42,203 nucleotides of DNA from an uncultured Eubacteriales bacterium (GCA_934481325.1 CAKSPL010000001.1:1-42203); one strand, 5' to 3'. Positions 10,339-27,345 are shown, counted from the stretch's first letter. The notes: generated by a model from the sequence alone, not told the origin. Numbers and translations: made by a program.

Positions 10339-10394
10339 AATCACACCTCCAAGGCTCCGGGCAGGCAACCTGCCCAAATTTATAAATTGAAATT

Positions 10395-10423
10395 ATTATA
10401 TCCGAAAGTTCCGTTTTTGTCAA
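10395..10423 (-). promoter_or_regulatory. Perfect-consensus SigA promoter for serC-serA
   Basis: Minus strand reads TTGACA (10423-10418), exactly 17 nt, TATAAT (10400-10395). The leader then contains hairpin GGGCAGG-TT-GCCTGCCC (about 10358-10374). Confidence 0.7.
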
Positions 10424-10483
10424 GTGTTTTTTGTCATTTCGCCGATTTTGACATTATTTTTGCAATTGCAAGCATTAAAATAT

Positions 10484-10525
10484 TCAAGAAAACGGGAAGG
10501 AACGCCCTTCGGCGCACTTCCCGTT
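10484..10525 (-). terminator. Intrinsic terminator ending the phage-derived operon
   Basis: Stem AACGGGAAG ... CTTCCCGTT (10491-10499 / 10517-10525) with an inner GCC-CTTC-GGC hairpin. On the minus strand it is followed by TTTTCTTGA. It begins 6 nt after the stop at 10531. Confidence 0.75.
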
Positions 10526-10530
10526 CCCGC

Positions 10531-10869
10531 TTACTTCGCGTTCACTTTTTTGGAAAAGGCAATGTCCTCCTCCACCTGTTTGCGGCATTCCTCGGCATCA
10601 AAGGGCAACCCCTGTTCGGCGGCGAAAACACTCAGCTTTTCCAGAACATACGAGAGCTTTTCCGCGGCACCGAAGCCCGGGATTTCTTCCGCCTCCATTT
10701 CAAACTGCCGCGCCGCCTCCAATATGCGGAGCCAGGCACGCACATCGCGCCCCTTTCCGGAGCGGATGTACTCACAAAGATTGTATGCAAGCCCCACAAG
10801 ATTGATGAGAATTCCGAGCAGGAGCGTAATTGCCTGCGGGTTTTCGGTGAACCATTTCAAAATCTGCAT
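10531..10869 (-). CDS. Putative phage holin (LL-H-family-like)
   Basis: 112 aa. One N-terminal TM (AITLLLGILINLVGLAY), then a charged helical tail (GAAEKLSYVLEKLSVFAAEQGLPFDAEECRKQVEE). This resembles LL-H-type holins from memory. It is the last gene of the operon and has a GAGGAAGAG RBS. Confidence 0.5.
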   Translation of the reverse strand: MQILKWFTENPQAITLLLGILINLVGLAYNLCEYIRSGKGRDVRAWLRILEAARQFEMEAEEIPGFGAAEKLSYVLEKLSVFAAEQGLPFDAEECRKQVEEDIAFSKKVNAK

Positions 10870-10930
10870 TTCTCTTCCTCACTTTCGGGAGAAAGGAGAA
10901 GCACCGGAGGGAAAAAGCAGAAAAAACGCG

Positions 10931-11272
10931 TTACAGCCTGCCGCCCTTTGTACGGAGAAACCATTTGGCAAAATCCCCGTATGCCTCGTTGAAAGCCGCG
11001 GCGGACATCTGATATGCCGTGGCATCCTTGGCGGCATAATCAATCATTTTCATCAGATATATCCAGTACACGCGGTCATAGGGTGCCGGGGCAAACAGGC
11101 GGAGTATTTGCGGCGTGTTCTCCCCGAATACCGGAATTTTTTCGGGTTCTCTGCCCGCAATCTCGGTCAGGATTCTGCCCTCCAGCTCCGAGAGCCAGCG
11201 CAGTTTGATGGACTGTGCCAGCTCATTCGGGCGCAGAGCATCCGCGGTCTGCAATACCTCTGCTATCGTCAT
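10931..11272 (-). CDS. Phage head-associated hypothetical protein (possible head-completion/connector protein)
   Basis: 113 aa. The ATG overlaps the upstream stop (ATGA at 11269-11272). Its position after the capsid gene suggests a connector role. No motif I can name. Confidence 0.45.
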   Translation of the reverse strand: MTIAEVLQTADALRPNELAQSIKLRWLSELEGRILTEIAGREPEKIPVFGENTPQILRLFAPAPYDRVYWIYLMKMIDYAAKDATAYQMSAAAFNEAYGDFAKWFLRTKGGRL

Positions 11273-11694
11273 ACCGCATCCCCCGCGGCGCGCCTTCTTG
11301 TCTCATCGGCAAAGCGAACCGCCTCACGCTCCATCAGCTCCGCCGTGCGCAGGTCCTGAATCTCCGACTGGTCGAGCAAAAGCGCGAATTTGCGGCGGAT
11401 GCGTGTCCAGACTCCGCGGCGGATCACGCAGTTTTTGCCGTTGATGGCAACGTACACATCATCCTTGTATTTTTCATTGTCCTTGAAAAGGCGCACCTCC
11501 ACATATTCGTTGAGATATGCCTCCTGGCGTTTGAGGAAGTCGCGGAATTGCCCCTTGTCCTCAAACAGCCGGCTTTTCTTTTCCGTCCCTTCCAATTCGG
11601 CAATCCGCGCCTCATACGCCGCCTGCATCTCCTCCATTTGCCGTTGCAGCTCGGCAAGGGTCGGCGGCTGTTGCCGCCCATTCTGTTTTTCCAT
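11269..11694 (-). CDS. Phage hypothetical protein with N-terminal coiled coil
   Basis: Start taken at ATG 11694 (MEKQNGRQQ...), which has AAAGGAGAAGT upstream, giving 141 aa. Coiled-coil-like LAELQRQMEEMQAAYEARIAELE, then VEVRLFKDNEKYKDDVYVAINGKNCVIRRG. Directly downstream of the capsid gene. Confidence 0.5.
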   Translation of the reverse strand: MEKQNGRQQPPTLAELQRQMEEMQAAYEARIAELEGTEKKSRLFEDKGQFRDFLKRQEAYLNEYVEVRLFKDNEKYKDDVYVAINGKNCVIRRGVWTRIRRKFALLLDQSEIQDLRTAELMEREAVRFADETRRRAAGDAV

Positions 11695-11770
11695 ACTTCT
11701 CCTTTCCGTGGCACCGCAGTCAGGGAGTTTACAAAACATCCCTGACCAGGTGCCGGGTTGTTATTCTACC

Positions 11771-13162
11771 TTAGTTTTCGCCCGCTTCAAAGGTGGACGC
11801 GGTCTCAATGCGCACCATAAATGCCTCTACCAGGCGCGCCGCCGCTTTGGTTGCCTTCCAGCCCACCGTGGCGCGCTGATTCAGCGGGTCGGCGGTGCCG
11901 GCGGAGCCAAGCTGTTTGACGATGTGCTGGAGTCCGCCGCCCTGCAGCTCGGTGGTACCGTAGGCGTTGTCGCCCATCACAAGCGTCACATACACGTCAC
12001 GCCCTGCAAGTCCCGCTTCACCGGGATACAGCATATCTCCCGCGGCGGTGGTCACTGCGGTACTGCCGATGCCGCCCGCAAGCAATTCGCGGTCAAAGTA
12101 CAGGTAGTTGTTGCCGGAAGCACTGTACACGGCACCGGTAACCACGGCATACTGCCAGGAGGACTCCGAAGCGTCAAAGAACAGCACGGAGCGACCCACC
12201 ATAGAGGGTGCCGCCTTTACGCCGTCTGCGGCGGTGCCGATTTTCAGGCGGTATTTGGAGCCTGTTCCGTAGCCTTCGGTTGCCGTACCCGCGGTACTCA
12301 GCGTCTCATAAGCACCCGCAAGGCAGGAAATCGTGCGGGAAACGGCGGTAAGATCGGGGGCATGAATCACCTTTGCCTCGGTGGATTCCACAAACCGAAC
12401 CCCTTCGATCATCCCGATCTCGCCCTCATACAGTGCCTTGGTATCGCTGTACTGATGCGGATATTTCCAGTTGGGATCGTTGGTCAGGTCATAGGCGCAA
12501 TCGGGGTGAATGATGCAGGCATAGGAGCCGTTGATCTTCTCCGCGTTCTGGTTTTTGAGGAAGCGGACGGCACGCTTGATACAGTCCACGCTCATATAGT
12601 GATTGCCGCTCGCCTCGCCGCCCACCAGCAGATACCGCGCGGGAACCGCATCGGCACCGTACTGCACGTTCGTACCGCCGCAAAGCACCTCACGGGTGAT
12701 GGTGTCCAGCGTTCTGCCCGCCTGAGAGCCGAGCAGCTTGGTTGCCATTACAAGGTTGTTGTCAATGGCGGAAAGCAACAGCAGGTCGGAAAGCTCCACA
12801 TACCCGCCGTACTGATGCACCGTTGCCTCCACGGAGCCCATATTCAGGGTCTGACCCGTAGGGGTCACACCCTCGGAAAGGGCAGAGGTGAGCTTGGGCA
12901 GCGGATCGTACTTGCGGAAACGGATGGTTTTGCCGCCGTGTTTCGGAATCGGATGCTTTTGCGCAAACTGATCGTGAATCAGATTCGGCTCCGCGTTGTC
13001 AATGAGGTAATCCGAGTAGTAAACGCGCATCTCCTCGGAGAGTCCCTCTCCCTCGGAAAAGGGCGCGTTGGTGCCGGTTGTGGCATCGGTCACACCGACC
13101 GTGGTGTTGACCGCTTCGCCCGCGCCGAACAGGCGCAGGTCAAGCATTTTTCCGTTTTTCAT
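11771..13162 (-). CDS. Major capsid protein, N4-gp56-like family (HK97 fold)
   Basis: Start at ATG 13162 (MKNGKMLDLRLFGAGE...), which has AGGAGA upstream, giving 463 aa. Blocks MRVYYSDYLIDNAEPNLIHDQFAQKHPIPKHGGKTIRFRKYDPLPK and LSEGVTPTG...HQYGGYVELSDL match my memory of this capsid family. Confidence 0.8.
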   Translation of the reverse strand: MKNGKMLDLRLFGAGEAVNTTVGVTDATTGTNAPFSEGEGLSEEMRVYYSDYLIDNAEPNLIHDQFAQKHPIPKHGGKTIRFRKYDPLPKLTSALSEGVTPTGQTLNMGSVEATVHQYGGYVELSDLLLLSAIDNNLVMATKLLGSQAGRTLDTITREVLCGGTNVQYGADAVPARYLLVGGEASGNHYMSVDCIKRAVRFLKNQNAEKINGSYACIIHPDCAYDLTNDPNWKYPHQYSDTKALYEGEIGMIEGVRFVESTEAKVIHAPDLTAVSRTISCLAGAYETLSTAGTATEGYGTGSKYRLKIGTAADGVKAAPSMVGRSVLFFDASESSWQYAVVTGAVYSASGNNYLYFDRELLAGGIGSTAVTTAAGDMLYPGEAGLAGRDVYVTLVMGDNAYGTTELQGGGLQHIVKQLGSAGTADPLNQRATVGWKATKAAARLVEAFMVRIETASTFEAGEN

Positions 13163-13184
13163 AAATCTCCTTTTTCTCTTCGGG

Positions 13185-13901
13185 TCAGAGTTCGATTCGC
13201 TCCCCCTGTGCCGCCCGCAATGCCACCGCGGCACGCTCGGCACGGGTCAGGCGCGAAACACCGGTACGGGAACCGGAATCCAGCGGGGAAAGCGCATTTT
13301 CCGCAGGGCGTATGCCTCTTGCGAGAATCGTTTCCGTCAGTGCCCGTTCCGTTTCGGCGCGGGCATCTGCCACGGCTCTTTCCACTGTCTCGCGGATGCG
13401 CCTGTCAAGCTCCGCCGCGGATTCCGTTTTTTCCGTTGCCGCCGGCACCGCCGCGTTCGCGGGTGCTGCCACCGGCTCTGTAACCGTTGTTTCTTCGGTC
13501 GGCTCCTTTGCCGTCGCCTCTGTCGACGCCGTCACTGCACTGTCCGCCCGGATGGCGTCCGGCAGTTTGCCGACCTCGCTCACCCCGTATCGTGCCGCCG
13601 CGGCATCCACCACGGCACGGGCAAGGTTCAGCTCCTCCAAAAGACCCTTCTGTTCTTTGAAACGCTTGGCAAATACCTCGTTGAAGTAGGCGGTAAACTC
13701 CTGTTTGTATTCCCCCTCCATCAGCGCACGGAATTTCTGTCGCGCTTCGCTTCGGTTCTTCCCGGCGTCGGAAGCTGCCTCTTCGCCCGCAGGTGCCGTG
13801 GCACCCTCATTTGCCGGCGGGATGATTTCCGGCGGTGTTTCCCCATCCCCTGTGGAACTGCCGAATAACCGCAGTCCCGGCAGATCTGCTGACTGTTTCA
13901 T
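13185..13901 (-). CDS. Phage scaffolding protein
   Basis: Start at ATG 13901 (MKQSADLPGLRLFGSS...), giving 238 aa. Ala/Glu-rich, predicted helical, with FRALMEGEYKQEFTAYFNEVFAKRFKEQ. Located between the protease and capsid genes. Confidence 0.7.
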   Translation of the reverse strand: MKQSADLPGLRLFGSSTGDGETPPEIIPPANEGATAPAGEEAASDAGKNRSEARQKFRALMEGEYKQEFTAYFNEVFAKRFKEQKGLLEELNLARAVVDAAAARYGVSEVGKLPDAIRADSAVTASTEATAKEPTEETTVTEPVAAPANAAVPAATEKTESAAELDRRIRETVERAVADARAETERALTETILARGIRPAENALSPLDSGSRTGVSRLTRAERAAVALRAAQGERIEL

Positions 13902-14275
13902 ATGCTCACCCTTTCGTGGCATCGGGCGGTTTTTTCACCGTCCTGCCGAATTATACCATACTGTTTCTTTTTTGTCGTCAACGATGCAAAAACCGTTACG
14001 TCCCGGGGGTAAATCTCCGCAATGTGGCAAAGCCCCCGCACCGTGGCGTCAAACGCGCCGCCAAGCCCCCCGCGGCAGGAGAGGAACAACCGCCCCGGCT
14101 CCGCCGAGTACCGCAAATGCCTGCAAGCGGGATTTTCCGCGGCAAACAGTAACAGTCCCTCACTCAGTGCGGAAACACCCGCGCACACCAGCTCCTTATC
14201 CGGCGAGACTTCGGCGTGCCCGGTAACATACAGCCGATAACGCCCGTCCTGCCGGTCGGCATACACTCGGATCAT
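13898..14275 (-). CDS. Prp-like (DUF464, ribosomal-processing) cysteine protease, phage-encoded
   Basis: 125 aa. MIRVY...YVTGHAEVSPDKELVCAGVSALSEG reproduces the Prp catalytic His (GHA) and Cys (VCAxxS) spacing. ATGA overlaps at both ends (14272-14275 and 13898-13901). Confidence 0.8.
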   Translation of the reverse strand: MIRVYADRQDGRYRLYVTGHAEVSPDKELVCAGVSALSEGLLLFAAENPACRHLRYSAEPGRLFLSCRGGLGGAFDATVRGLCHIAEIYPRDVTVFASLTTKKKQYGIIRQDGEKTARCHERVSI

Positions 14276-15966
14276 TGGTCGTCCTTTGCCTGCTCGGCAA
14301 GCCGCTTTGCCCCGGAAAACGCGGTGCGTATGGGGTCATATTCCTTTTTTTCGGATTTTCCGGAGGTCTCCCCTCCCAAGAAATCCGAAGGAATTTCCTC
14401 CCCGTTTTTCAGGCGGGCAACCAGCTTTTTCACCCCCGGAAAGTCCATACAATCCAGGAGAATCAGTGCCGCCTCCCGGTTGGCGGGGTCAAATACCCCC
14501 ATCCGGTACAACTCCTTGAGGTTGTCATTGGAGCTGACACGGGTAAAGGAATCCTGTTTTTCCGCCCGTACGTCAATGTCAAAAACAGGCACGCGGGAAA
14601 GCGGAAGCCCGGCGGAGGACACCCCCAGCGACCGCTCGCGGATTCTCACCCCCGAAAAGCTCACATAACGATAGCCCTCCTCGCCCATCACGCGGAAATA
14701 ACGCTCGCCGTCATAAAACTGCCGCACACATTCGATCACCAGTTGTACCAGCCGGACAAACGCCCGATAGGAGGTGGACACCACGTCCCGCACACACTTG
14801 CTTGCCGCCTCCTGCAATGCGGCGATTGCCGCCGCTGCGGTCACGCCGCTCTCGGAGCCGCCCTGCAACAGATTGCGGTTGAAGGTGGTTTCTTTCAACT
14901 CGTCTACCTTGGCTTTTTTCAGTTCCAGCCACATCGAATCCAGTGGCTCCACCGTAATCTGGCGCAAACGCTCCTCTCCGAGGTCGCCCTCCACCTCCAC
15001 GACACGGCGGGTGACATCGGTAAAGTCGTTTTCGTTTACCCCCGTGTTCTTTTTGCAGAAATACCGCACGCGGGTCGCCCAATCCATATATTCCATCAGA
15101 TTGCGATCCATCCGGTCAATGTAGGTTTGCGGGTCCTTCGCCATAGAAATCAGACCGAATCCGGTGCAGCTTTCCTCCATCGGATACATCACGTCCATCA
15201 CAAAGGGGTACTCCCCGTGTTCATACCAGCCCCGCGCAAAGCGGGGGTCGTTTTCGGTGGCAAACAGAACCGCATCCCCCGAAAATTTGCAGTAGTGAAG
15301 CACGGTTCTGCCGCCCGGCAGACGCTTTTTGTAGTACCAGTCCACCACCAGTACCCGCCCGTCGCTTCCTTCTATCTCCCCGAGACGCTCTCTGTCACAG
15401 TGCGGGAATTTCGCCAGCACGGCACTTTTTTCCGCCTCCTCGGTGTAAAACACCGCACGGGAGCTTTGCAGATTCCGCACGCCGGGTTCTATATAAAGCT
15501 GCATCGGGTCTACCCGCCGCACGTCAATATCCCCCAATCCGTTCTGCAATTCGCCGTTCCAGAACACCCCGTAAATGCAAAAGCCGTGCTTGAGCTTGGT
15601 CCACATATTGCGGGAATAGCACTCGGCAAATCCACTGCGCTCCAGTATCACCGGGATAATCTCGGACAATGCCTTTGCGTCCGCCTCATCCCCCGGCTCC
15701 CGCGCCAGACACACCGCCGTCGGAATATAATCCATCAGGTCGGCGTGCTTTTGCAGAACCGCGTTGAGCAACCACGCGGAAGAGGGGGAAAAGCACTCTT
15801 CCTCGCTGTTTCGGTGCGCCTTCGGGGTCATCCGCCCGCGAAACCATTTTTTCTCCTCACACAGTCGCCTTTCCACTTCGGCTCTGCCGTGGCGATAGGC
15901 GGTAAGCAGTTCCGTCGCGTGCCGCACCTCCGGCACGCCCACCGTGCTGTTGATTCTTTTCTTCAT
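14272..15966 (-). CDS. Phage portal protein
   Basis: Start at ATG 15966 (MKKRINST...) after AAAGGAGAAAAA, giving 564 aa. Its size and its position between the terminase and protease genes support the call. Family assignment needs an HMM search. Confidence 0.75.
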   Translation of the reverse strand: MKKRINSTVGVPEVRHATELLTAYRHGRAEVERRLCEEKKWFRGRMTPKAHRNSEEECFSPSSAWLLNAVLQKHADLMDYIPTAVCLAREPGDEADAKALSEIIPVILERSGFAECYSRNMWTKLKHGFCIYGVFWNGELQNGLGDIDVRRVDPMQLYIEPGVRNLQSSRAVFYTEEAEKSAVLAKFPHCDRERLGEIEGSDGRVLVVDWYYKKRLPGGRTVLHYCKFSGDAVLFATENDPRFARGWYEHGEYPFVMDVMYPMEESCTGFGLISMAKDPQTYIDRMDRNLMEYMDWATRVRYFCKKNTGVNENDFTDVTRRVVEVEGDLGEERLRQITVEPLDSMWLELKKAKVDELKETTFNRNLLQGGSESGVTAAAAIAALQEAASKCVRDVVSTSYRAFVRLVQLVIECVRQFYDGERYFRVMGEEGYRYVSFSGVRIRERSLGVSSAGLPLSRVPVFDIDVRAEKQDSFTRVSSNDNLKELYRMGVFDPANREAALILLDCMDFPGVKKLVARLKNGEEIPSDFLGGETSGKSEKKEYDPIRTAFSGAKRLAEQAKDDQ

Positions 15967-15977
15967 TTTTTCTCCTT

Positions 15978-17459
15978 TCACTCCCGGCTCTGCCGCTTTT
16001 CCATCGCGCTCCGATAGGTGCGGATGGGGCGATCCAACGGGTCATATGTGATCACTTCTTTTACCGCCGTTACCTCCGCGCGGGGCAACGGCACCATCAT
16101 ACAGAGGTAGCGTGTTTCGTCCGCAATATGATCCTCCATATCCGAATCCACATCTTCGGGCGATGTTTTGCTGTATTGCAGGGCGGGAACGGTGCGCAAA
16201 AAGTCGGTACAGGTGCGGAAAACATAAAGCATCGGCACCCCGGCGCGGTCAAAAATCAGCCGCTCGTGCAATTGCATCCATCCGGCAATGCGGCGGTTGT
16301 CGCCCGGTTCAAAATAAATGCCGTACCGTTCCCCCGTTTCCGCAACCGATTCTCCGCGTGACGCATCGAAAATCGCCGGGTCTGCCACCCCCACAATCCG
16401 CCTGCCCGAAAGAAACGGATGCTCCTTTTCCACCTGCGCGATTTTGGAAAAAATCTCCTGCGGGCTCCACCGCACCCCCACGTTTGCCTCACGCGGGGCG
16501 CAACCGTACAACTCCAGAATACGGTAAAGCCGCCCGTCTCCGTCCTTTGCCCACCACCCTACCGAAAACGGTTTGGCATAGCCAAAGTCAAAGGATCGGT
16601 AAAGCTGCCAACTGTCCGGCGGGCGGAACGGGTCAATAATATGGGTAAACCGACGGTCGGCATAGTGCGCGGGGTCATCGCGCAATTCCTCAAACACCTG
16701 CCCTTCAAACACGTTCCAATCCCCGTACAGGTGCGCTTTTTTCTTATGCTCCGGCAACGCCTCCAAGCGTTTGATATAAGCCGGGTCCGCCTGCATCAGC
16801 ACCTCGTTGTCGTATACGTTTGCGGGGATAAAGCAGTAGTCCTCCGGGTTCTCGCCCGTGCGGAACCGGCGGTCGATAAACAGCCGCTTAATGTAGGCGT
16901 GTCCCACTCCGCCCGGATTGCAGGTATAATACACGCGGGGGCGAAAATCGGTGCGTGTGGTGCGCAATGCCGTGCAGATGAATACCATCCACTCCTCCTT
17001 GAAATTGGTCGCCTCCTCAAAACCGATCACATCGTACTCCGCGCCCTGATATTGCAGAACGTCGCTGTCCGCATCGCAATAGCCGAGAACCAACCGCGAG
17101 CCGTTGGGAAAGAGAAATGCCCGGTCCTCCTTACGAAACACGGCATAACCCGCCAGGTCGTTCTGCAACGGCAGAATGTGATTTTCCCGCAATTGCGTCA
17201 GCGTGCGGCGCAATAACAGCAACCGCAGGGCAGGGTAGCGCATCGCCAGCATCACCATCTTGCGGCGAAGCGCATAAGACTTTCCGCCCCCGCGCGCCCC
17301 GCCGTAGGCGGTATAGCGCGCCGTGGAACGGAAAAACGCCTCCTGCCTCGGGTTCGGCACCTCGTGCCGCAGTTTATCGAAAATGAGTGCCTCGCGTGGC
17401 TTTTTATCGGTGGCTCCCACTCGCACCCGCCTCCCTTTCTTTGCCCGGAATGTTGCCAA
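15978..17459 (-). CDS. Terminase large subunit
   Basis: Walker A YGGARGGGKSYAL, Walker B-like YDVIGFEEA, and C-terminal nuclease-type DMEDHIADETRY. The track start is TTG 17459. A GTG 12 codons downstream follows GGGAGG and may be the true start. Confidence 0.85.
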   Translation of the reverse strand: MATFRAKKGRRVRVGATDKKPREALIFDKLRHEVPNPRQEAFFRSTARYTAYGGARGGGKSYALRRKMVMLAMRYPALRLLLLRRTLTQLRENHILPLQNDLAGYAVFRKEDRAFLFPNGSRLVLGYCDADSDVLQYQGAEYDVIGFEEATNFKEEWMVFICTALRTTRTDFRPRVYYTCNPGGVGHAYIKRLFIDRRFRTGENPEDYCFIPANVYDNEVLMQADPAYIKRLEALPEHKKKAHLYGDWNVFEGQVFEELRDDPAHYADRRFTHIIDPFRPPDSWQLYRSFDFGYAKPFSVGWWAKDGDGRLYRILELYGCAPREANVGVRWSPQEIFSKIAQVEKEHPFLSGRRIVGVADPAIFDASRGESVAETGERYGIYFEPGDNRRIAGWMQLHERLIFDRAGVPMLYVFRTCTDFLRTVPALQYSKTSPEDVDSDMEDHIADETRYLCMMVPLPRAEVTAVKEVITYDPLDRPIRTYRSAMEKRQSRE

Positions 17460-17482
17460 AACGCATCGCGTTCCGGGGGATA

Positions 17483-17725
17483 TTACTTACTCCACTCATC
17501 CAATACCCCCTCAAAGGTCACACTGCCGGGTACGCCGGAGACAGGTGCCTCGCCCGACAGCACCCGACCGAGAATCTCCTCCGCCGCTTTGAAACGGAGC
17601 TCGGGCTTTGCCTCCTCATCCTTCATCAGGCAAACCAGAAACCGCACCGCGTCCGCCCCCGATGCCCGCAACAGTGCCTGTAAGTCCGTTTCAGTCTTTT
17701 TCGCCGCCGTCGTTTTCCGAGGCAT
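17483..17725 (-). CDS. Small phage protein, candidate terminase small subunit
   Basis: Start at ATG 17725 (MPRKTTAAKK...) after AAGGAGAG, giving 80 aa. The call rests on its position immediately upstream of TerL and on the basic N-terminus. No diagnostic motif. Confidence 0.35.
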   Translation of the reverse strand: MPRKTTAAKKTETDLQALLRASGADAVRFLVCLMKDEEAKPELRFKAAEEILGRVLSGEAPVSGVPGSVTFEGVLDEWSK

Positions 17726-18014
17726 CGGTTCTCTCCTTGTTTTCCGGCAGCTTCCGCGGCACAAACCGGATCAGGTAAGCATCCCCCGCGTCCTCAATTT
17801 CGGGAGAAAACCGCTCCAGTCCCGCGCGGATTTCGCTTTTTTGAATCCGGAGCTCCGGGTTTTTTTCGCACAGTCTTTCCAGTGTCAGCTTCAGAAACGC
17901 CGCAAGCAACGCCACTTCTTCCTCGCGCCCCGCAAGCGCATCACCGAGACTGCGGATGTACCTGTCCCGCCACGCTACTGCATATTCCAGCTTTTTTTCG
18001 TTGTTTTCCGGCAT
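17691..18014 (-). CDS. Phage hypothetical protein
   Basis: Start at ATG 18014 (MPENNEKK...) after AAAGGAGA, giving 107 aa. The 3' end overlaps the next gene by 35 nt. Confidence 0.45.
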   Translation of the reverse strand: MPENNEKKLEYAVAWRDRYIRSLGDALAGREEEVALLAAFLKLTLERLCEKNPELRIQKSEIRAGLERFSPEIEDAGDAYLIRFVPRKLPENKERTDASENDGGEKD

Positions 18015-18015
18015 C

Positions 18016-18210
18016 TCAGAATCTCCTTTCATAATAGCCGTCCATCACGTTTTTGAAGGGGCAGCGTTCAAAATCCTTCGGATGGGCGCAATAGGAATAC
18101 AAAAATCCCCGTCTTGCTTCCTTATCCGGAAATTTCAGCTTTGCGCACTCGCAATAGGTCACCCCCGCCTTTTCGTATTGGTAATACGGACACGCACCTG
18201 CAATCGGCAT
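18016..18210 (-). CDS. Cys-rich 64-aa protein, first gene of the leftward operon
   Basis: AAGGAGGAAGTT-ATG. MPIAGACPYYQYEKAGVTYCECAKLKFPDKEARRGFLYSYCAHPKDFERCPF has five Cys and one His, spaced like a metal-binding knuckle. Confidence 0.5.
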   Translation of the reverse strand: MPIAGACPYYQYEKAGVTYCECAKLKFPDKEARRGFLYSYCAHPKDFERCPFKNVMDGYYERRF

Positions 18211-18256
18211 AACTTCCTCCTTGTTTCTTTTTCGGGACGTTTGTTTTCCCGTTTAT

Positions 18257-18276
18257 TCGTCCTATTTTTGGGACGA
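18257..18276. promoter_or_regulatory. Operator-like palindrome O1
   Basis: TCGTCC-tatttttg-GGACGA: perfect 6-bp inverted arms with an 8-nt spacer, preceded by AT. It lies in the leader of the leftward operon. Confidence 0.5.
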
Positions 18277-18329
18277 GCAAGGTGCAACTCATTCTGCATC
18301 TCCGGAATACAATCAGAATTGCACTCTAT

Positions 18330-18349
18330 TCGTCCTAATTCTGGAACGA
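18330..18349. promoter_or_regulatory. Operator-like palindrome O2
   Basis: TCGTCC-taattctg-GAACGA. Same left arm, same spacer length and same terminal TG as O1. It lies 5-24 nt downstream of the -10 of the leftward promoter, over the expected transcription start. Confidence 0.5.
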
Positions 18350-18353
18350 CATT

Positions 18354-18382
18354 AGCATACACCATTTTCTCCCGTTTGTCAA
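18354..18382 (-). promoter_or_regulatory. Leftward (head-operon) promoter
   Basis: Minus strand reads TTGACA (18382-18377), 17 nt, TATGCT (18359-18354). Confidence 0.6.
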
Positions 18383-18418
18383 GTACGATTTCCAAAAAGT
18401 TATGATGAAATTGTAAAT

Positions 18419-18438
18419 TCGTTCCGTTTTTGATACGA
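18419..18438. promoter_or_regulatory. Operator-like site O3 (degenerate)
   Basis: TCGTTC-cgtttttg-ATACGA. Same architecture as O1/O2. It ends 5 nt upstream of the -35 of the rightward promoter. Confidence 0.4.
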
Positions 18439-18442
18439 CCGC

Positions 18443-18471
18443 TTGACTTTTCCCTCCCGCGTTGCTACAAT
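18443..18471 (+). promoter_or_regulatory. Rightward promoter for the XRE/ImmA-like genes (and possibly glpK)
   Basis: TTGACT (18443-18448), 17 nt, TGC-TACAAT (-10 at 18466-18471). Confidence 0.6.
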
Positions 18472-18514
18472 AATATTGAAGAAAAGACTGCTATGGCAGG
18501 GAAAGAGGCAACAA

Positions 18515-18826
18515 ATGAATGTTTCCGACCGCATCCGCGCGCAAATGGACCGACAGGGGCTGTCCTATGGGGAGCTTGCCCTTCGCACGGGGCTGACGAA
18601 GTCTGCGGTACACCGTTATGCCACCGGGCAGACCGACAAGGTGCCCACCGAGGCATTGGAACGGTTGGCACTTGCCCTCGGCGTAACGCCTGCCTATCTC
18701 ACCGGGTGGGAAACGGAATCCCCCCACACGCTCGCGGCACATTTTGAAGGGGAATCGTTCAGTGATGAGGAGCTGCGGGAAATCGAAGATTTTGTGCGGT
18801 TTGTGAAGTCCAAACGCCCACACTGA
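18515..18826 (+). CDS. XRE-family HTH repressor (ImmR/cI-like)
   Basis: Start at ATG 18515 (MNVSDRIRAQMDRQGLSYGELALRTGLTKSAVHRYATGQ...), giving 103 aa. Canonical XRE helix-turn-helix. Divergent from the phage operon. Confidence 0.85.
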   Translation: MNVSDRIRAQMDRQGLSYGELALRTGLTKSAVHRYATGQTDKVPTEALERLALALGVTPAYLTGWETESPHTLAAHFEGESFSDEELREIEDFVRFVKSKRPH

Positions 18827-18848
18827 AAGGAAACTTTGAAAGGGAGCT

Positions 18849-19331
18849 ATGTACGAGCAACTTTTGGATGAAGCCAAGGAAAAAGGCATTACCGTGATTG
18901 AAAAATACCCGTTTACCTCGCCCCGCATCCGCGGGCTTTGCTGTGATGATACCATTGCCATCAGCGCGCAGGTGGACACCGAAGCGGAGCGCACGGTCAT
19001 CCTTTGCGAGGAGCTGACGCACGCCACGCATTCGGCAGGCGATATCCTCACCGACAGCCGGATGGAACGGCGTGTGCGGGAGCGGATTTTTGACCGTCTG
19101 GTCGGCACTGCGGGGCTGGTGCGTGCCTGCCTCGCCGGGTGCCGCACTCCGTGGGAAATTGCCGACTTTTGCGGCGTTCCGGAGGCATTTCTGCACGCTC
19201 TGCTTGCCAATTACAGAGAGCGGTTTGACCCGCGCATTATCGTCACACTTCCGGAAGGGACCTTTGCGCTGACCCTGCAACCGACCCTTTGCGTTTCCAA
19301 ACTCAAAAAAGGAAAAGGAGAAACGGTATGA
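18849..19331 (+). CDS. ImmA/IrrE-like (COG2856-type) putative anti-repressor metalloprotease
   Basis: 160 aa directly after the XRE gene. The layout ...GLCCDDTIAISAQVDTEAERTVILCEELTHATHS... matches ImmA-like proteins, but the HEXXH position reads CEELTH, so the first His is absent. Confidence 0.6.
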   Translation: MYEQLLDEAKEKGITVIEKYPFTSPRIRGLCCDDTIAISAQVDTEAERTVILCEELTHATHSAGDILTDSRMERRVRERIFDRLVGTAGLVRACLAGCRTPWEIADFCGVPEAFLHALLANYRERFDPRIIVTLPEGTFALTLQPTLCVSKLKKGKGETV

Positions 19332-21658: not shown

Positions 21659-24600
21659 TTAGATAAAGCCCTTCAGAATTTCGCGGGCAGATTCCGAATA
21701 CCGGCTGTAAACGGTGTTTCCGCCTGCATCGGTGGTCGCATATCTGTATTCGTCACTCTGCGCGGTCTTTGTGTCGGCAAGAGCCGCCTCGGCAACCTGG
21801 CGGATGGAACGCACGTTGTTCACACCGTCAAACTCGCTGTAATAGTAGGTGACCGCACCCTCTGCATCCACAACCTTCACATAGGAAATTGCCGCAAATG
21901 CACGGGTCAGGTTGGCTTTTTGGATGTTGGTGAGAGCCGCGCGAATCTCTACATTGCCGTTCTCATCCTCAATCAAACCGGCATCGGCTTTGATATCCTT
22001 ATACCTGACCGTGACGTCCTTGAGTGCGCTTGCCGCGTCCAGAGCTTCCATCGTAAACGCATCCGCGCACACCACATAGTCCATCGGAGCAATCACGGTG
22101 CCGTAGCTGATGCTACCGGTAGCACCTGCCAATTCCTTGGCAGCCGCAATCTTATCCGCCGTAATGGTGGAGATGAAGCGAAGACCGGTGGAGCCTGCGG
22201 TCATACGAACCTGTGCGCCGGGTTTGGTGGTCATCGCGTACTTGCTGTCGGTCGCACCGGAGAACGTCCACACCTTGTAGGTTGCGCCCTCAAAGTTGCA
22301 GGTGCCGGCATAGGTACCCACGGCAACGTCGCCGTGCGAGTCGGTCGGGTGATAGCCGCTTGCCGTTGTGATATCGGCACAGCCGTTGGTGTTCACAAAG
22401 TACAACTGAGCCGCACTTGCCAGGAATTTACCGCCGGTGATGTTCAGGGAAGCGCAGGTATTGTTCTTGAAAACGACCTGCTGGCTTCCGGTTTTTTGGT
22501 TGACAAGAGTACCGCCGCTGATGTTCACAGTGCCATAGGTACCAGAACCGCCGCAACGGACAACAGCCCCCCACACCTGCGTGTTACCGGGAGTGGCAAT
22601 CAGCACACCGCCCATAATATTGAGCGTGCCGTTGGTTTCCGTAGTAATGGTATTATCGGAGCCGCTTTCATTCTTGGTTTTACCGCCAAGCGCGCGTGCA
22701 ACGCACATACCGTTGTTGGTAAATCTGCCGCCGAACATATTGAGCGTACCTCTATCTGCACGAATCAGAGCGTCCGCCTGATCGATACCCTCAAAGGTGC
22801 CGCCGTAGATGTTGATTACTGCATTGTCGCCCTGGGTCATTACGGCTTCGCCGCGGGAATTATAGGAGCCGTCCTCAACGTTCAGAACGCCGTTCTTGCA
22901 AAGAATCAGATTGCCGGTTGCGTTCTTGATCACGCTTTCACTGCCCTTGATTTCCACAAGAGAAGGCGTCTCGCAATACAGGCCGATAGCGTAAGTGTTG
23001 CTGCGGATACGACCGTTCTCGTTTGCGGAGCCGACATAGAGCTTCACGTTGGTAAAGGTCAGGTTCAGCACGGAGGAACGGCGGTTCAGCCCTGTGCGCA
23101 CGCCGGCACCCTGTGCATATACCGTCAGATTGTTCACGTTGGCGGTGCCACTGCCGCTGAGGTTGAGCATATACTTGCCCGTATTCGCGGCATAGAAGTT
23201 GTAGCCGTTGCCGTCAAAGGTGTAGGAAACACCGTTGGAAACGATGGTTTCCGGAGTAGCCGCATAGTAATTTGCCAACAGCTTCACGGTTGCACCCTCG
23301 GTGAGGTACATACTGACCTCACTCAGAGAATCAACGGTTGCCACAAGCTCGTTTGCGGCATTGTACACCGCAACCTTGTTTGCCTCGTTGGGTTCCACAC
23401 CAAGGAGCTTCGCATACGCATAGCCAAGCTCACCGTTCGTGACAGGGTTGATACCCGCGGCAAGCAGTACGTTGGCAGTTACGGTGTTGTCCATCGCAAA
23501 GTCGGTAATTGCCACCGTACCCGTGCTGTTTCCGCCAAGGGCAACCGTGGTACCGCCGTTACCGGTTTGCGCATCATACATCGCGCTCCCGGATTTGACC
23601 AGGTTCCCGGAGATGTTGGCTTTTGCCGTCAAAGGGGAAGTACCGGTGCCATAGTACAAGTGGGTTGCCGTTTTTGCCGTAACCGTGGCAACAATCACGT
23701 TGTTCTTGATGGTTGCGACATTCGTATTGGCATATCCGCAAAGCGCACCGGCGCGGGCACCCGTACTGGTAACGGTGCCGGCAATAATGCAGTTCTGAAT
23801 ATCAATGCCGACTTTATCGCTTGCCCACTGATAGCCGACCAGTCCGCCTACATCGGCAGTGCCACAGGAGATGGCACCGGTATTGACGCAGTAGGAGTAA
23901 ACAATGCTGCTACCGCTGGTTGCGTGCAACTCACCCGCCATACCGCCGGCGCGGGTTTTGCCGGTAACGGAGCCGGTATTGATGCAATTCCGGAACGAAA
24001 AGACCTTGCAACCGGAGTCCTGGTGGTGGTTCGCCATCCCCGCCGCGACAAGCGTGGTGGAGGTAACCGAGCCGGTGTTGATGCACGCGGTGAGGGCTAC
24101 GCCCTTGGCACTGTCACCGACGATACCGCCTGCATAGCGAACGCTTACGATTTCGCCGCCGTTGTAGCACCCCTGCGCATAAACCGCAGCCGTGCCGTTA
24201 TAGCCCTGGATACCGCCCGCGCTGGCAAGATCCGCGGTGCCGGTGCTGGTGATTTTGCCGGTGTTTACGCAATCCCGATACATCGGGTTGGCGGAAGCTG
24301 AAGTTTGCGAGCTACCCACGATACCGCCTGCCTGATGCACACTGGATACCGCGCCGCTGTTGGAGCAGTTGATATAAGTGGTGTAGTTACCGTCGGAATA
24401 ACCGCAAAGACCGCCCGCAGCAGTACTGCCGGTAGCGGCTTCAATCGCACCGGTGTTGGTGCAGTTTTCAAACCGCGCCAAAGCACCGTTTGTCGTGCCG
24501 ATGATACCGCCCGCATAGTTCTTGGAGGTGGTAACACTTGCAGTGTTATGGATGTTGATAAAGGTTGCCCCACCGAATCTGGCAAGCGCACCCACCGAAT

Positions 24601-27013
24601 CGGTATGAGTGACGGAGCCTGCAATCGTCAGATTGCGGATTACCGCGCCTGCGGCAAAGGCTGCAAATGCGGGTTTGCCGTTTACGGTGATGGTGTGGTT
24701 GTCCCCGTCAAAGGTGCCGAGGAAATATCCGGAGCGGCTTTCGCTCAGCGTGATATTTGCCGTCAGCTTGTAGTTGCCCACAAGGCTCATTGCCAGGAAT
24801 TCTTCCGCGGTGGAAATATTCGTTACCGTGTCACGAGGGGTGTTGACCAGAACGGTGCCCGACATTACGGTAAACGGATCCGCATCCGCGGCAAAGCGAT
24901 AATCGGTAGCAATCTCCACAGGCGTGCCTGTGCCGGTTTTTGCCTTGTTGTTAATCATCGGGCCCGTAAAGGTCGCTACCACATAGTTGCGTTTGTAATA
25001 GCCCGCACCCATCACGGCATCGTTGTTCCAGCCCAGTGCGTTCAGCACCGAGGAGCCGTTCGCATTTTTGCCGGTGGGGAACACCGTGGAGGTAAGCGTA
25101 CCTGCCAGCACGTTGTCGGTAAACAAGCCATAGGTGCTGTTGGTATAGCCGAATACATAGCCTGCGTTGCCGGCGGCGGTCACGTCGCCGGTGTTGATGC
25201 AGTAGGTTGCCATCAGATAAGCCTGCGAGCCGGAGCCAAACTGATAACCCACAATTCCGCCTGCGTACAGCTGTGTATGGATATTGGAAGCGGAAGCGGC
25301 ATTCGCCAGTTTGGATTCGCCGGACGTCACCTTGCCGGTGTTGATACAGCCGGTTACCCGCGTGACACCCTTGTAAGCGCCATTTCCGGAGAGGGCAATG
25401 ATACCGCCTGCGATACCGCCCTCCTGCTTGGTCACTTTGCCGTCGGTCAGGGTGTACGACGCCTTGGCGGTTACGTTACCGTCATTGCGGCAGTCGGTTA
25501 CGGTCAGGGGGCAGACGACGGTGCCTGCGATACCGCCCGCAGCGATACCGACTGTATCCGGCGAATCCGTACGGGGACCCACGTTGCCCTTATTGGTGCA
25601 ACGGATAATCGTTACGGGAGTTTGCGAATATGTCACAATCCCGGCAACGTTACCGGTATAGGAGGTTACGGCACCCTCATTGAGGCAATCCGAAATGACA
25701 ACGGAAACATCCAGTGCCAAATTTCCAATTGTGTCCGCACGGGCAACAATGCCGCCGGCGTAGTTGTATCGCGAGGTTACCGCGCCATAGTTTTCACAGC
25801 CCTGAACGGTGATTTCCGTGTTGTTGATGCACCCGGCGATACCGCCGTTCTGTCCGGTACCCTCCACATCCGCGTAGTTCTTACAGCCGGTAATGAGCGT
25901 TTTGTTCGTGGAATTGCCGACCATACCGCCCGCGCGTTTTTGATTGTATTCATTTACGGTATTGGTGTTTATCGCCTTGCCGGCATAGACCTTACCGGTG
26001 AGCTCGTTGGTGCAGTTTTCAATGGTAAGCTGCACGATGGAGTTGCCGATCATACCACCCGCATTATTATTATTCGCCGTAATGACCCCGGTATTGGTGC
26101 AACCCACCAAACGGACGGCAACGGTACCGGAGGTGTTGTTGGTATAGGCGATGATACCGCCCGCGTGATCTGCGGAGGTTACCGCGCCCTCGTTGCGGCA
26201 GTTATAGAACAGAGCCACGCCGTTGGGGCATTCCACACCGGCGGCAATGCCTGCGGCACTGCTTGCTTCCGTGGAAACCTCGCCCTTGTTGACGCAGTTG
26301 ATGAAAACGGCTTCACTGTCCTTATCGGCGGATACCAGCGAGGTAATGCCGCCGGAGGTATCGTTGCCGAAAATCTTACCTTCATTGGTGCAACGCTCAA
26401 AAATTGTGTAGCCGGCGGTGCGCCCTGCGATACCTGCGGCGCGCTTTGTAAAGCCGGCGGTACCGTCATAGTCCACCACGTTCGCCTTATTGAGAATGTT
26501 GAAGAAGTTGCAGTCAGACGAATTGCCGCACGCCACCGCACCGGTGTTGCCGGCAGAAACGGTTGCTATCCCTTCCTTCGTACTCTCAACCGTCAGGTTT
26601 TTGATGGTTGCGCCCTGCGGTGCTTCAAACAGCGGCACCGTAGTGGTTACGGTATAGCCGTTGCCGTCAAATACGCCGGCAAAGCCTGCATAGGTCGCGC
26701 TGATGGTGATGTTTGCCGTAAGATAATACTTACCATTGGGATCCATCTTGGCAAAATCCTCACCACTGCTGATTGCGGTGCCGACAGGAGTATACCCCGC
26801 ACCGGGGTTGCCTACCGGAACCGAATCATCAAGTGCCGGATTTCCGGTATTGATCTTGATTTCGCCCGCGCCGTTCGGCTGTTCTGCCGTTCCCTCGGAT
26901 GTCGTAACACCCTCTACCGATACTGCAATAGCACCGGCAGGAATGCCGGATACCACCATCAGAACCGTGAGAACGAGACACAGCCATACAGCAAGTCTGT
27001 TTTTCTTGTTCAT
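21659..27013 (-). CDS. Giant secreted GLUG-repeat / parallel beta-helix surface protein (putative adhesin)
   Basis: Start at ATG 27013 (MNKKNRLAVWLCLVLTVLMVVSGIPAGAIA, a signal peptide) after AAGGAGGAAAAT, giving 1784 aa. About 20 repeats of C-x-N-x-G...(A)GG(I/M/L)(V/A/I)G, e.g. YAGGIVGY and DVGGLVGY. Later a GTLNMFGG / GTLNIMGG / VNISGGT beta-helix region. Confidence 0.8.
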   Translation of the reverse strand: MNKKNRLAVWLCLVLTVLMVVSGIPAGAIAVSVEGVTTSEGTAEQPNGAGEIKINTGNPALDDSVPVGNPGAGYTPVGTAISSGEDFAKMDPNGKYYLTANITISATYAGFAGVFDGNGYTVTTTVPLFEAPQGATIKNLTVESTKEGIATVSAGNTGAVACGNSSDCNFFNILNKANVVDYDGTAGFTKRAAGIAGRTAGYTIFERCTNEGKIFGNDTSGGITSLVSADKDSEAVFINCVNKGEVSTEASSAAGIAAGVECPNGVALFYNCRNEGAVTSADHAGGIIAYTNNTSGTVAVRLVGCTNTGVITANNNNAGGMIGNSIVQLTIENCTNELTGKVYAGKAINTNTVNEYNQKRAGGMVGNSTNKTLITGCKNYADVEGTGQNGGIAGCINNTEITVQGCENYGAVTSRYNYAGGIVARADTIGNLALDVSVVISDCLNEGAVTSYTGNVAGIVTYSQTPVTIIRCTNKGNVGPRTDSPDTVGIAAGGIAGTVVCPLTVTDCRNDGNVTAKASYTLTDGKVTKQEGGIAGGIIALSGNGAYKGVTRVTGCINTGKVTSGESKLANAASASNIHTQLYAGGIVGYQFGSGSQAYLMATYCINTGDVTAAGNAGYVFGYTNSTYGLFTDNVLAGTLTSTVFPTGKNANGSSVLNALGWNNDAVMGAGYYKRNYVVATFTGPMINNKAKTGTGTPVEIATDYRFAADADPFTVMSGTVLVNTPRDTVTNISTAEEFLAMSLVGNYKLTANITLSESRSGYFLGTFDGDNHTITVNGKPAFAAFAAGAVIRNLTIAGSVTHTDSVGALARFGGATFINIHNTASVTTSKNYAGGIIGTTNGALARFENCTNTGAIEAATGSTAAGGLCGYSDGNYTTYINCSNSGAVSSVHQAGGIVGSSQTSASANPMYRDCVNTGKITSTGTADLASAGGIQGYNGTAAVYAQGCYNGGEIVSVRYAGGIVGDSAKGVALTACINTGSVTSTTLVAAGMANHHQDSGCKVFSFRNCINTGSVTGKTRAGGMAGELHATSGSSIVYSYCVNTGAISCGTADVGGLVGYQWASDKVGIDIQNCIIAGTVTSTGARAGALCGYANTNVATIKNNVIVATVTAKTATHLYYGTGTSPLTAKANISGNLVKSGSAMYDAQTGNGGTTVALGGNSTGTVAITDFAMDNTVTANVLLAAGINPVTNGELGYAYAKLLGVEPNEANKVAVYNAANELVATVDSLSEVSMYLTEGATVKLLANYYAATPETIVSNGVSYTFDGNGYNFYAANTGKYMLNLSGSGTANVNNLTVYAQGAGVRTGLNRRSSVLNLTFTNVKLYVGSANENGRIRSNTYAIGLYCETPSLVEIKGSESVIKNATGNLILCKNGVLNVEDGSYNSRGEAVMTQGDNAVINIYGGTFEGIDQADALIRADRGTLNMFGGRFTNNGMCVARALGGKTKNESGSDNTITTETNGTLNIMGGVLIATPGNTQVWGAVVRCGGSGTYGTVNISGGTLVNQKTGSQQVVFKNNTCASLNITGGKFLASAAQLYFVNTNGCADITTASGYHPTDSHGDVAVGTYAGTCNFEGATYKVWTFSGATDSKYAMTTKPGAQVRMTAGSTGLRFISTITADKIAAAKELAGATGSISYGTVIAPMDYVVCADAFTMEALDAASALKDVTVRYKDIKADAGLIEDENGNVEIRAALTNIQKANLTRAFAAISYVKVVDAEGAVTYYYSEFDGVNNVRSIRQVAEAALADTKTAQSDEYRYATTDAGGNTVYSRYSESAREILKGFI

Positions 27014-27094
27014 ATTTTCCTCCTTGAAATAAAATAACAGGGTTGAAATGAAAAGGTGCGCGAAAAATTTCCAAAGCACCGGTTTTCCGTTTTT

Positions 27095-27345
27095 GATTGC
27101 GCCCGCGCGATACTCCACGCGGAATACGCCGCGATGCGCTGTGCCGTGTGCGCTGTGATGCGTTTGCGTTGCGCCGCGATGCGCCGTGCATTAGTGCCGC
27201 CCGCGCGTTCTGCCGCGATGGGCTTGCATTGCGCCGCGCCGTGTGCGCCGCGCCGAAAAGTTTTCTGCGCCATTGCCTGCGCGTGATGCGCCCACGCGCG
27301 ATTCGCCGCGCATTGTACGCCACGACGTGCCGTGCGATGCGCCGT
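27095..27345. repeat. Non-coding CG-rich degenerate repeat tract upstream of the GLUG gene
   Basis: CCGCGATG recurs at 27129, 27174 and 27213, defining ~40-45-bp units (tRcgccgcgatgcgcYgtgc...). Many GCATTGC / TGCGCCGCG words. Confidence 0.55.

Follow-up and report, generated by a model that had tools for sequence, protein, structure and literature searches.

Does the cysteine protease gene inside a virus-like head operon of a gut bacterium serve to trim the capsid and scaffolding proteins encoded beside it? The question is raised by a 42,203-nucleotide stretch of DNA from an uncultured Eubacteriales bacterium (GCA_934481325.1, CAKSPL010000001.1:1-42203), analysed at its full length and referred to below as the 42 kb window, on which the head genes of interest all lie on the minus strand. 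An open reading frame (ORF) of 125 amino acids (aa) between the portal and scaffold genes is assigned, from its sequence and predicted fold, to the Prp family of cysteine proteases (MEROPS C108). The scaffolding and major capsid proteins encoded downstream of it share an N-terminal motif that resembles the Prp site of ribosomal protein L27. The genes and segments concerned are the following, where an arrow marks a predicted or known scissile bond.

15978..17459, minus strand: large terminase gene (Pfam Terminase_6N and Terminase_3, PHROG 979)
14272..15981, minus strand: portal gene, P22-type (Pfam P22_portal 8.7e-22, PHROG 156)
13898..14275, minus strand: Prp-family cysteine protease gene, 125 aa, predicted folded core residues 1-101
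14171..14221, minus strand: predicted catalytic segment G19-H20-A21 ... V30-C31-A32-G33-V34-S35, from alignment to S. aureus Prp
14216-14218, 14183-14185 and 14171-14173, minus strand: codons of His20, Cys31 and Ser35, respectively
13185..13901, minus strand: scaffolding protein gene, 238 aa, between the Prp and capsid genes (PHROG 13908)
13863..13901, minus strand: predicted scaffold propeptide, residues 1-13 (MKQSADLPGLRLF), predicted cut F13↓G14; LRLFG at 13860-13874
11771..13162, minus strand: major capsid protein gene, 463 aa, N4-gp56 family (TIGR04387 288 bits; PHROG 1357)
13127..13162, minus strand: predicted capsid propeptide, residues 1-12 (MKNGKMLDLRLF), predicted cut F12↓G13; LRLFG at 13124-13138

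The stop codon of the portal gene and the start codon of the 125-aa ORF overlap as ATGA, as do the stop of the 125-aa ORF and the start of the scaffold gene, and the protease gene is predicted to be translationally coupled to both the portal gene before it and the scaffold gene after it. The capsid start at 13162 is preceded by an AAGGAG ribosome-binding site. The scaffold N-terminus read from 13901 is MKQSADLPGLRLFGSSTGD and the capsid N-terminus read from 13162 is MKNGKMLDLRLFGAGEAV; gene calls made independently on other assemblies with the identical protein likewise yield products of 238 aa and 463 aa. The capsid protein matches PHROG 1357 'major head protein' (3.6e-84) and is related to the capsid proteins of the Bacillus podophages Page and Pony.

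The 125-aa ORF reads ...TGHAEVSPDKELVCAGVSAL..., with 10 residues separating His20 and Cys31. A reading of the window from sequence alone, referred to here as the sequence-only reading, had placed a GHA...(10 aa)...VCAG pattern between portal and scaffold, and the pattern is indeed present in the ORF at 14275..13898 (-). The identification with Prp (DUF464) made in that reading was borne out by a Pfam PF04327 match above the cut-off (residues 1-47, 29.1 bits, cut-off 27), a match to PHROG 4478 'peptidase' spanning residues 1-95 (9e-12) and the Prp fold of an AlphaFold2 (AF2) model. A single-sequence search of the ORF against PDB sequences returned nothing relevant; a profile built from 15 homologues matched S. 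mutans SMU.848, S. aureus Prp and the S. pneumoniae homologue. In the profile alignment His20, Cys31 and Ser35 fall on His22, Cys34 and Ser38 of S. aureus Prp, so that the proposed His/Cys dyad lands on the catalytic pair; as described in PMC9405229, His22 and Cys34 are catalytic and Ser38 is essential. The three residues are kept in 20/20 syntenic copies of the gene, despite identity down to 39%, and are intact in more distant relatives as well.

The AF2 model, computed with 60 homologues, has a predicted local distance difference test (pLDDT) value of 84.6 overall and >90 for residues 1-100; disorder is predicted for the last 25 residues. Comparison of the model with the PDB by Foldseek placed Prp-family chains (2g0i, 2g0j, 2idl, 7jvs, 7kld, 4peo and 1s12) in all of the top 13 positions, with probability 1.00 and target-normalised template modelling (TM) scores of 0.62-0.83. 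The best matches in the BFVD viral structure database are a 'Cysteine protease' and a 'YsxB-like protein' of uncultured phages and a Streptococcus phage SOCP protein. The ratio of nonsynonymous to synonymous substitution rates (dN/dS), estimated by the Nei-Gojobori method over nine closer pairs with dS near saturation, is 0.10-0.44 for the Prp gene. The gene adjoins portal and scaffold genes and not rplU/rpmA, the setting that marks a housekeeping Prp (ysxB), and its product is classified, on alignment and gene neighbourhood, as a divergent, non-ribosomal, virus-type paralogous member of the family. An exhaustive Prp profile search returned almost only ~100-aa proteins, with no Prp-scaffold fusions in the best 150.

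The putative substrates are marked by the motif LRLFG, which occurs exactly 2 times in the six-frame translation of the 42 kb window, once at the capsid N-terminus (residues 9-13) and once at the scaffold N-terminus (residues 10-14); the corresponding figure for shuffled sequences is 0.06. An upstream Leu is L7 in each protein, two residues ahead of the motif in the capsid and three in the scaffold. The shared motif on both proteins proposed in the sequence-only reading thus stands as LRLFG, and the longer form given there, L-x-L-R-L-F-G, fits the capsid only. The sites read M-L-D-L-R-L-F↓G-A-G in the capsid and G-L-R-L-F↓G-S in the scaffold. Loci for comparison, referred to below by L numbers, were collected by a capsid-protein scan of species-representative genomes, which gave 36, and by exact-protein look-ups, which gave 2 more. 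The capsid motif is present in 22/22 orthologues, with a hydrophobic P6, Asp at P5 (21/22), Leu at P4 (22/22), Arg (8), Gln (8) or His (6) at P3, Leu (14) or Arg (6) at P2, Phe at P1 (22/22), Gly (17) or Asp (5) at P1' and Ala at P2' (22/22), followed by Gly in 19. The scaffold motif is present in 19/21 orthologues, where P4 is Leu in 19/19, P2 Leu in 18/19, P1 Phe in 19/19 and P1' either Gly (15) or Glu (4). The motif Phe lies at residue 11-14 and the remaining leader residues are variable. Among all ORFs of 21 loci, no protein besides capsid and scaffold carries the motif at its N-terminus, the other regular-expression matches being internal Met positions of glpK and spurious ORFs.

The ribosomal L27 site is MLxx(D/N)LQ(F/L)F'A(S/H)KK, and in S. 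aureus Prp, as described in PMC9405229, the P1 Phe stacks on the catalytic His while the P4 and P6 Leu fill hydrophobic space. The motif on the two head proteins is close to this site and deviates from it at P3 (Arg/His/variable) and P1' (Gly/Asp/Glu); by this likeness it is assigned as a conserved, L27-like Prp site on capsid and scaffold. A subclade of five loci (L001, L022, L023, L024 and L026) has an acidic P1', with ...LFD-AG in the capsid of all five and P1' Glu (...LFE-G) in the scaffold of L023, L024 and L026. That P1' has changed in both substrates points to one enzyme acting on the two, but only weakly, because the shared acidic shift is probably a single evolutionary event.

It is fairly probable, from the pairing of this enzyme with these leaders, that the local Prp recognises both and cuts after Phe12 of the capsid and Phe13 of the scaffold. 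The scaffold and the major capsid protein would be made with 12-13-residue leaders ending in a Prp recognition site, which the local Prp would bind as S. aureus Prp binds L27, with P4 Leu and P6 in hydrophobic pockets and the P1 Phe stacked on the catalytic His. Cleavage at F12↓G13 (capsid) and F13↓G14 (scaffold), during or before procapsid assembly, would leave the mature N-termini GAGEAVNTT... and GSSTGD..., and a small podovirus-type head would be assembled. We infer the cleavage, the bond that is cut, the action of the local rather than the host Prp and the formation of particles from these features.

The comparison that bears most directly on this proposal is with staphylococcal phage 80alpha. 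As described in PMC5744158, host Prp trims the 80alpha capsid (gp47) and scaffold (gp46) proteins, with 13 and 14 residues removed; that both carry the motif was also stated in the sequence-only reading. Like the window, 80alpha has ~13-residue leaders on capsid and scaffold that end in an L27-like motif and are cut after Phe, a cut that is predicted here, and it has a separate scaffold and neither a delta domain nor a classical prohead protease (PMC5744158, PMC9405229). The absence of a classical prohead protease from the cluster, claimed in the sequence-only reading, agrees with the scans, in which no known prohead-protease family was found among the Pfam and PHROG matches of any cluster ORF. 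The two systems differ in that 80alpha uses the host ribosomal Prp at a ...LQ(F/H)F↓A site, whereas the window encodes its Prp inside the head operon and has Gly at P1' (Asp/Glu in the subclade) and Arg/Gln/His or a variable residue at P3.

Several observations weigh against trimming by the local Prp. The Pfam PF04327 match is marginal and covers the N-terminal half of the model only, and the NCBIfam equivalogs for ribosomal Prp score 18 bits against cut-offs of 133-135, so the specificity of ribosomal Prp is not confidently transferable to this protein. The host almost certainly has a Prp of its own, which could do the trimming. The P1' residue is Gly here and Asp/Glu in one subclade, and the S1' site of S. 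aureus Prp is size-limited to Ala or Ser, as described in PMC9405229; the same source gives P3 Gln two structural roles in recognition, and P3 is Arg/Gln/His in the capsid and unconserved in the scaffold. In 80alpha the scaffold N-terminus is essential for assembly and cleavage of either protein is dispensable (PMC5744158), and in L001 and L022 the scaffold motif is lost with the rest of the operon kept, a loss that fits the 80alpha finding. Because of both, the cut may be unneeded for assembly, and maturation that depends on trimming, as supposed in the sequence-only reading, is not implied.

These points leave room for an arrangement in which the host housekeeping Prp trims the leaders, as in 80alpha, and the local Prp is a chaperone or assembly factor or acts on host L27. 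This is judged unlikely, although the motif is very near the L27 consensus (D/N)LQ(F/L)F'A (PMC9405229), the host enzyme suffices in 80alpha (PMC5744158) and a long L27 is general in Firmicutes (PMC9405229). A Prp-annotated protein, its function listed as 'Unknown', has also been detected by proteomics in purified particles of the gene transfer agent (GTA) of Faecalibacterium prausnitzii, FpGTA (PMC12946183), which could equally fit a structural or chaperone role. A tblastn search of the window and all fetched loci with L27 and S. aureus Prp probes found no rpmA. What speaks for a dedicated enzyme is that the local gene keeps its position and its predicted coupling to the scaffold gene, with the His, Cys and Ser intact in all syntenic copies and in distant relatives. 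In addition, P1' has moved from Ala to Gly/Asp/Glu within the clade while relatives keep ...F↓A, which is a better fit to a dedicated enzyme than to the L27 enzyme. The essential scaffold N-terminus and dispensable cleavage of 80alpha, and the two loci that kept the operon without the scaffold motif, would also suit a leader that is mainly an assembly or folding signal, for example one that co-recruits capsid and scaffold, its removal being incidental or absent and the protease dispensable. This seems improbable, the residues conserved in the leader coinciding exactly with the recognition positions of S. aureus Prp (P6, P4, P1 and a small P1') and the adjacent Prp having invariant catalytic residues and being under purifying selection. 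Cleavage of both leaders by the local Prp remains the preferred reading.

The coupling of a resident Prp gene with marked substrates is not confined to this locus. Phage precedents show that the arrangement is not unusual. Streptococcus phage Cp-1 encodes a MEROPS C108 protease that, as described in PMC12445089, takes 48 residues off the N-terminus of the major head protein. Its orf13 resembles the window Prp in a GH...SCARVS pattern visible in the sequence, but the cleavage site, ...RINH↓ATV, is not L27-like, and the protease gene of this phi29-like phage lies away from portal and scaffold. Enterococcus phiFL3A (gp45, DUF464) and Oenococcus phi9805, cultured phages that came up in a tblastn search with a more canonical relative, are closer in design, each with its own Prp/DUF464 gene directly after the portal gene. 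The phiFL3A scaffold starts MEQKKLLLLNLQFF↓AEK (LLLNLQFF↓AEK) and the head protein MEKSLIKMNLQIF↓AAK (KMNLQIF↓AAK); in phi9805 the scaffold has ...LLNLQRF↓AEG and the head protein MLKTVNLQRF↓ADI. Unlike the window, both represent the full genome of a siphovirus, in which the portal is SPP1-type, a MuF-like minor head protein is encoded and P1' is the canonical Ala. No paper characterising this design in phiFL3A or phi9805, only annotation, was found in the open literature. Since these phages share it, an own Prp with the motif on both proteins is widespread; the design is already known from phages, and what differs here is the setting in a head-only, host-inherited cluster.

That setting is a virus-derived block of ~9 kb with head and packaging genes only, between serC and glpK. 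Beyond small genes, the left flank consists of serC, serA and a prfA-like release-factor gene, and the right flank of an XRE repressor, an ImmA-like metalloprotease and glpK, followed by a large surface protein and ABC transporters. Every ORF from serC to glpK was scanned against Pfam, PHROG and NCBIfam; the matches identify only the head and packaging genes and the regulatory pair, and none points to a tail, lysis, integrase or replication gene. Nor does the cluster have att-like direct repeats at its flanks. The order glpK-ImmA-XRE, cluster, serC-serA-prfA recurs at the same site in more than 20 species-representative metagenome-assembled genomes of uncultured gut Clostridia (window 10400-19331; L001, L003, L005-L024, L026, L035 and L036). 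Across this set the flanking genes are 65-86% (glpK), 74-86% (serC) and 83-94% (prfA) identical to those of the window, and the element's genes 72-90% (TerL), 63-97% (capsid), 54-83% (portal), 39-70% (Prp) and 36-73% (scaffold).

Divergence of the host flanks and of the element is correlated, with a Mantel r of 0.53-0.54 that 0/5000 permutations reach (p<2e-4) when the same genes are used for every pair; an earlier test with differing host genes per pair gave r=0.19 only. The nearest host pairs are also the nearest element pairs. The dN/dS values are 0.03-0.23 for capsid, 0.05-0.09 for TerL, 0.08-0.16 for portal and 0.24-0.53 for scaffold, well under 1 for every cluster gene, and dS is similar to that of the flanking glpK and serC. 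The cluster is vertically inherited with its host flanks and under purifying selection.

The lack of tail, lysis, integrase and replication genes, and the absence from the window copy of the ~550-aa and ~150-aa genes that other loci have after the small gene o112, might be taken to mean that the cluster is what is left of a prophage in decay and the Prp/motif pair a relic without function. This is very improbable. All ORFs remain intact across more than 20 species, with only 65-85% identity among the flanking housekeeping proteins, every gene has a dN/dS well under 1 at a dS equal to that of the flanks, the regulatory switch is intact with three operator-like repeats, and in Faecalibacterium particles are produced from a cluster with this same architecture. 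A capsid-forming phage-inducible chromosomal island (cf-PICI) was also considered. Such islands feature an integrase, a replication module, mobility between hosts and an HK97-type packaging operon (10.1101/2025.02.11.637232); the candidate was rejected, the cluster having no integrase or replication genes, co-diverging with its flanks and possessing a P22-type portal and a separate scaffold. Given the synteny, co-divergence, purifying selection, kept catalytic residues and intact switch, neither a decaying remnant nor a mobile satellite is likely.

The counterpart in Faecalibacterium is operon I of FpGTA, ~10.5 kb in length, which encodes a TerS without DNA-binding domain, TerL, portal, scaffold, capsid and conserved hypothetical proteins (PMC12946183). 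Its gene order is given as TerS, TerL, portal, 'ribosomal-processing cysteine protease Prp', N4-gp56-family capsid and small conserved genes; genes for replication or integration are absent, and the operon is present nearly throughout its genus (PMC12946183). A separate operon II of ~5.5 kb holds tail and lysis genes, and the particles, ~40 nm across, contain ~8.4-8.9 kb of random host DNA (PMC12946183). Likened by family names and gene order, the window, with its TIGR04387 capsid (288 bits) and a Prp gene between portal and capsid, matches the architecture of FpGTA operon I. It differs in host lineage and chromosomal site and in having no nozzle-like gene at the locus. A search with the scaffold for a link to FpGTA gave 37 matches, all close relatives. 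As far as its genes indicate, the most fitting reading of the cluster is that of a head operon belonging to an FpGTA-like gene transfer agent, not of a prophage. The sequence-only reading is thus partly supported: it was right on the enzyme and on the likely substrates, wrong in calling a vertically inherited, head- and packaging-only cluster of ~9 kb 'phage-encoded', and described something less novel than supposed.

Some relatives carry further genes or belong to a separate group. Genes of ~150 aa and ~550 aa follow o112 in several syntenic loci (L003 14048-16214); the matching position of the window, 10378-10530, is empty, and in the window and L012, which are without both genes, purifying selection still acts on the other genes. 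The ~550-aa gene matches PHROG 511 'internal virion protein' weakly, and its product may be the counterpart of the FpGTA nozzle-like protein. A second group of relatives (L025, L027-L033 and L037), with a capsid ~62% and a TerL ~43% identical to those of the window, also has a head-only block of ~9 kb, with a ~555-590-aa gene at its end. The capsid leader of this group ends in a canonical FLQHF↓A, no scaffold motif was seen, and its Prp lies nearer to that of S. aureus. A CI-like S24 repressor occurs in L028, the Prp of L037 is apparently truncated, and the same surface-protein gene flanks the block in three loci. Two virome scaffolds, MT836159 and MT835662, were rejected as instances of this element, being distant relatives (TerL ~42% identical); the IMG/VR relatives number six, all short.

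The remaining features of the cluster and its right flank are the following.

11269-11739, minus strand: o156, small gene 3' of the capsid gene
10931-11272, minus strand: o113, small gene 3' of the capsid gene
10531-10869, minus strand: o112, small gene 3' of the capsid gene
17483..17764, minus strand: o93, possible small terminase, 93 aa (weak PHROG 641 and PHROG 15261 matches)
17691-18032, minus strand: o113b, small conserved gene, syntenic across loci
18016-18210, minus strand: o64, Cys-rich small conserved gene, syntenic across loci
13950..13981, minus strand: internal promoter-like element (TTGACGACAAA ... TGgTATAAT), inside the 3' tail of the Prp ORF, just upstream of scaffold
18211..18442, no strand assigned: divergent switch region with facing promoter-like sites, between the o64 and XRE genes
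18254-18276, 18327-18349 and 18416-18438: three operator-like repeats, TCGTCC-N-GGACGA (repeat family D2)
18443-18826, plus strand: XRE-type repressor gene (Pfam HTH_3)
18849-19331, plus strand: ImmA/IrrE-like metalloprotease gene (PHROG 87 'metallo-protease')

The three genes 3' of capsid match PHROG 15239 and PHROG 12105, both function-unknown families, and are kept in synteny across loci with a dN/dS of 0.07-0.32; o112 has a hydrophobic N-terminal segment. The match of o93 to PHROG 641 'terminase small subunit' is weak (E=0.003) and covers profile positions 64-120 of 162, the central part only, which suggests that the N-terminal region is missing. The Pfam and PHROG scans gave no family match for o113b or o64. 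The 64-aa, Cys-rich o64 (CPYY...C.C...C...C) is the tightest-constrained small gene of the cluster (dN/dS 0.02-0.10), is found in the second group of loci too and may be a zinc-binding regulator.

A promoter scan at 13950..13981 gave ACGACA-17-TATAAT with an extended -10 TG. The element, GTTGACGACAAA-N-TGnTATAAT, is kept in at least 13 loci in whatever reading frame (besides the window, L003, L005, L006, L008 and L013-L020), and probably serves the high-copy scaffold and capsid genes as an internal promoter. After it come a variable hairpin and then a conserved CGAAAGnGTGAGG ribosome-binding region. This promoter-like DNA would explain the disordered 'LTTK...II' tail of the window Prp; the tail had been considered as a targeting peptide, which was rejected, as the DNA is promoter-like and read in different frames in different loci.

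Within the switch region the ~23-nt repeats, which have internal dyad symmetry (TATTCGTCC-N7-GGGACGA) and overlap the promoter-like sites, look like repressor operators. Synteny of the XRE and ImmA genes holds in 19 loci, and the two have diverged in step with the element (Mantel r 0.84). The stop codon of the ImmA gene shares bases with the start codon of glpK (window 19328-19331; L001 3230-3233), which suggests that glpK (glycerol kinase) is co-transcribed with the element's regulatory pair. At the other cluster edge, a perfect consensus sigma-70 promoter, TTGACA-17-TATAAT, lies at 10395-10423 (-), just upstream of serC. Between glpK and the ABC-transporter genes, a protein of 1819 aa is encoded at 21659-27118 (-), which bears a signal peptide and numerous repeats and has no Pfam or PHROG family match.

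The strongest form of the proposal, that the cluster is a domesticated FpGTA-like agent with a private protease-substrate pair whose Prp has shifted its specificity to F↓G, and to F↓D/E in one subclade, is tentative and somewhat doubtful. If it were true, assembly would be independent of, and would not compete with, the essential Prp/L27 pathway of the host, and trimming of capsid and scaffold would be an assembly checkpoint of GTA particles, which would explain the 'unknown' FpGTA Prp. Prp is pursued as an antibiotic target, and the P1' and P3 variation across loci is a ready data set for Prp specificity. The findings give the FpGTA-type Prp a testable predicted function, the removal of a 12-13-residue leader by a cut after the conserved Phe, and a head-only cluster fixed at one site in more than 20 species of gut Clostridia points to a likely wider reach of GTA-like packaging.

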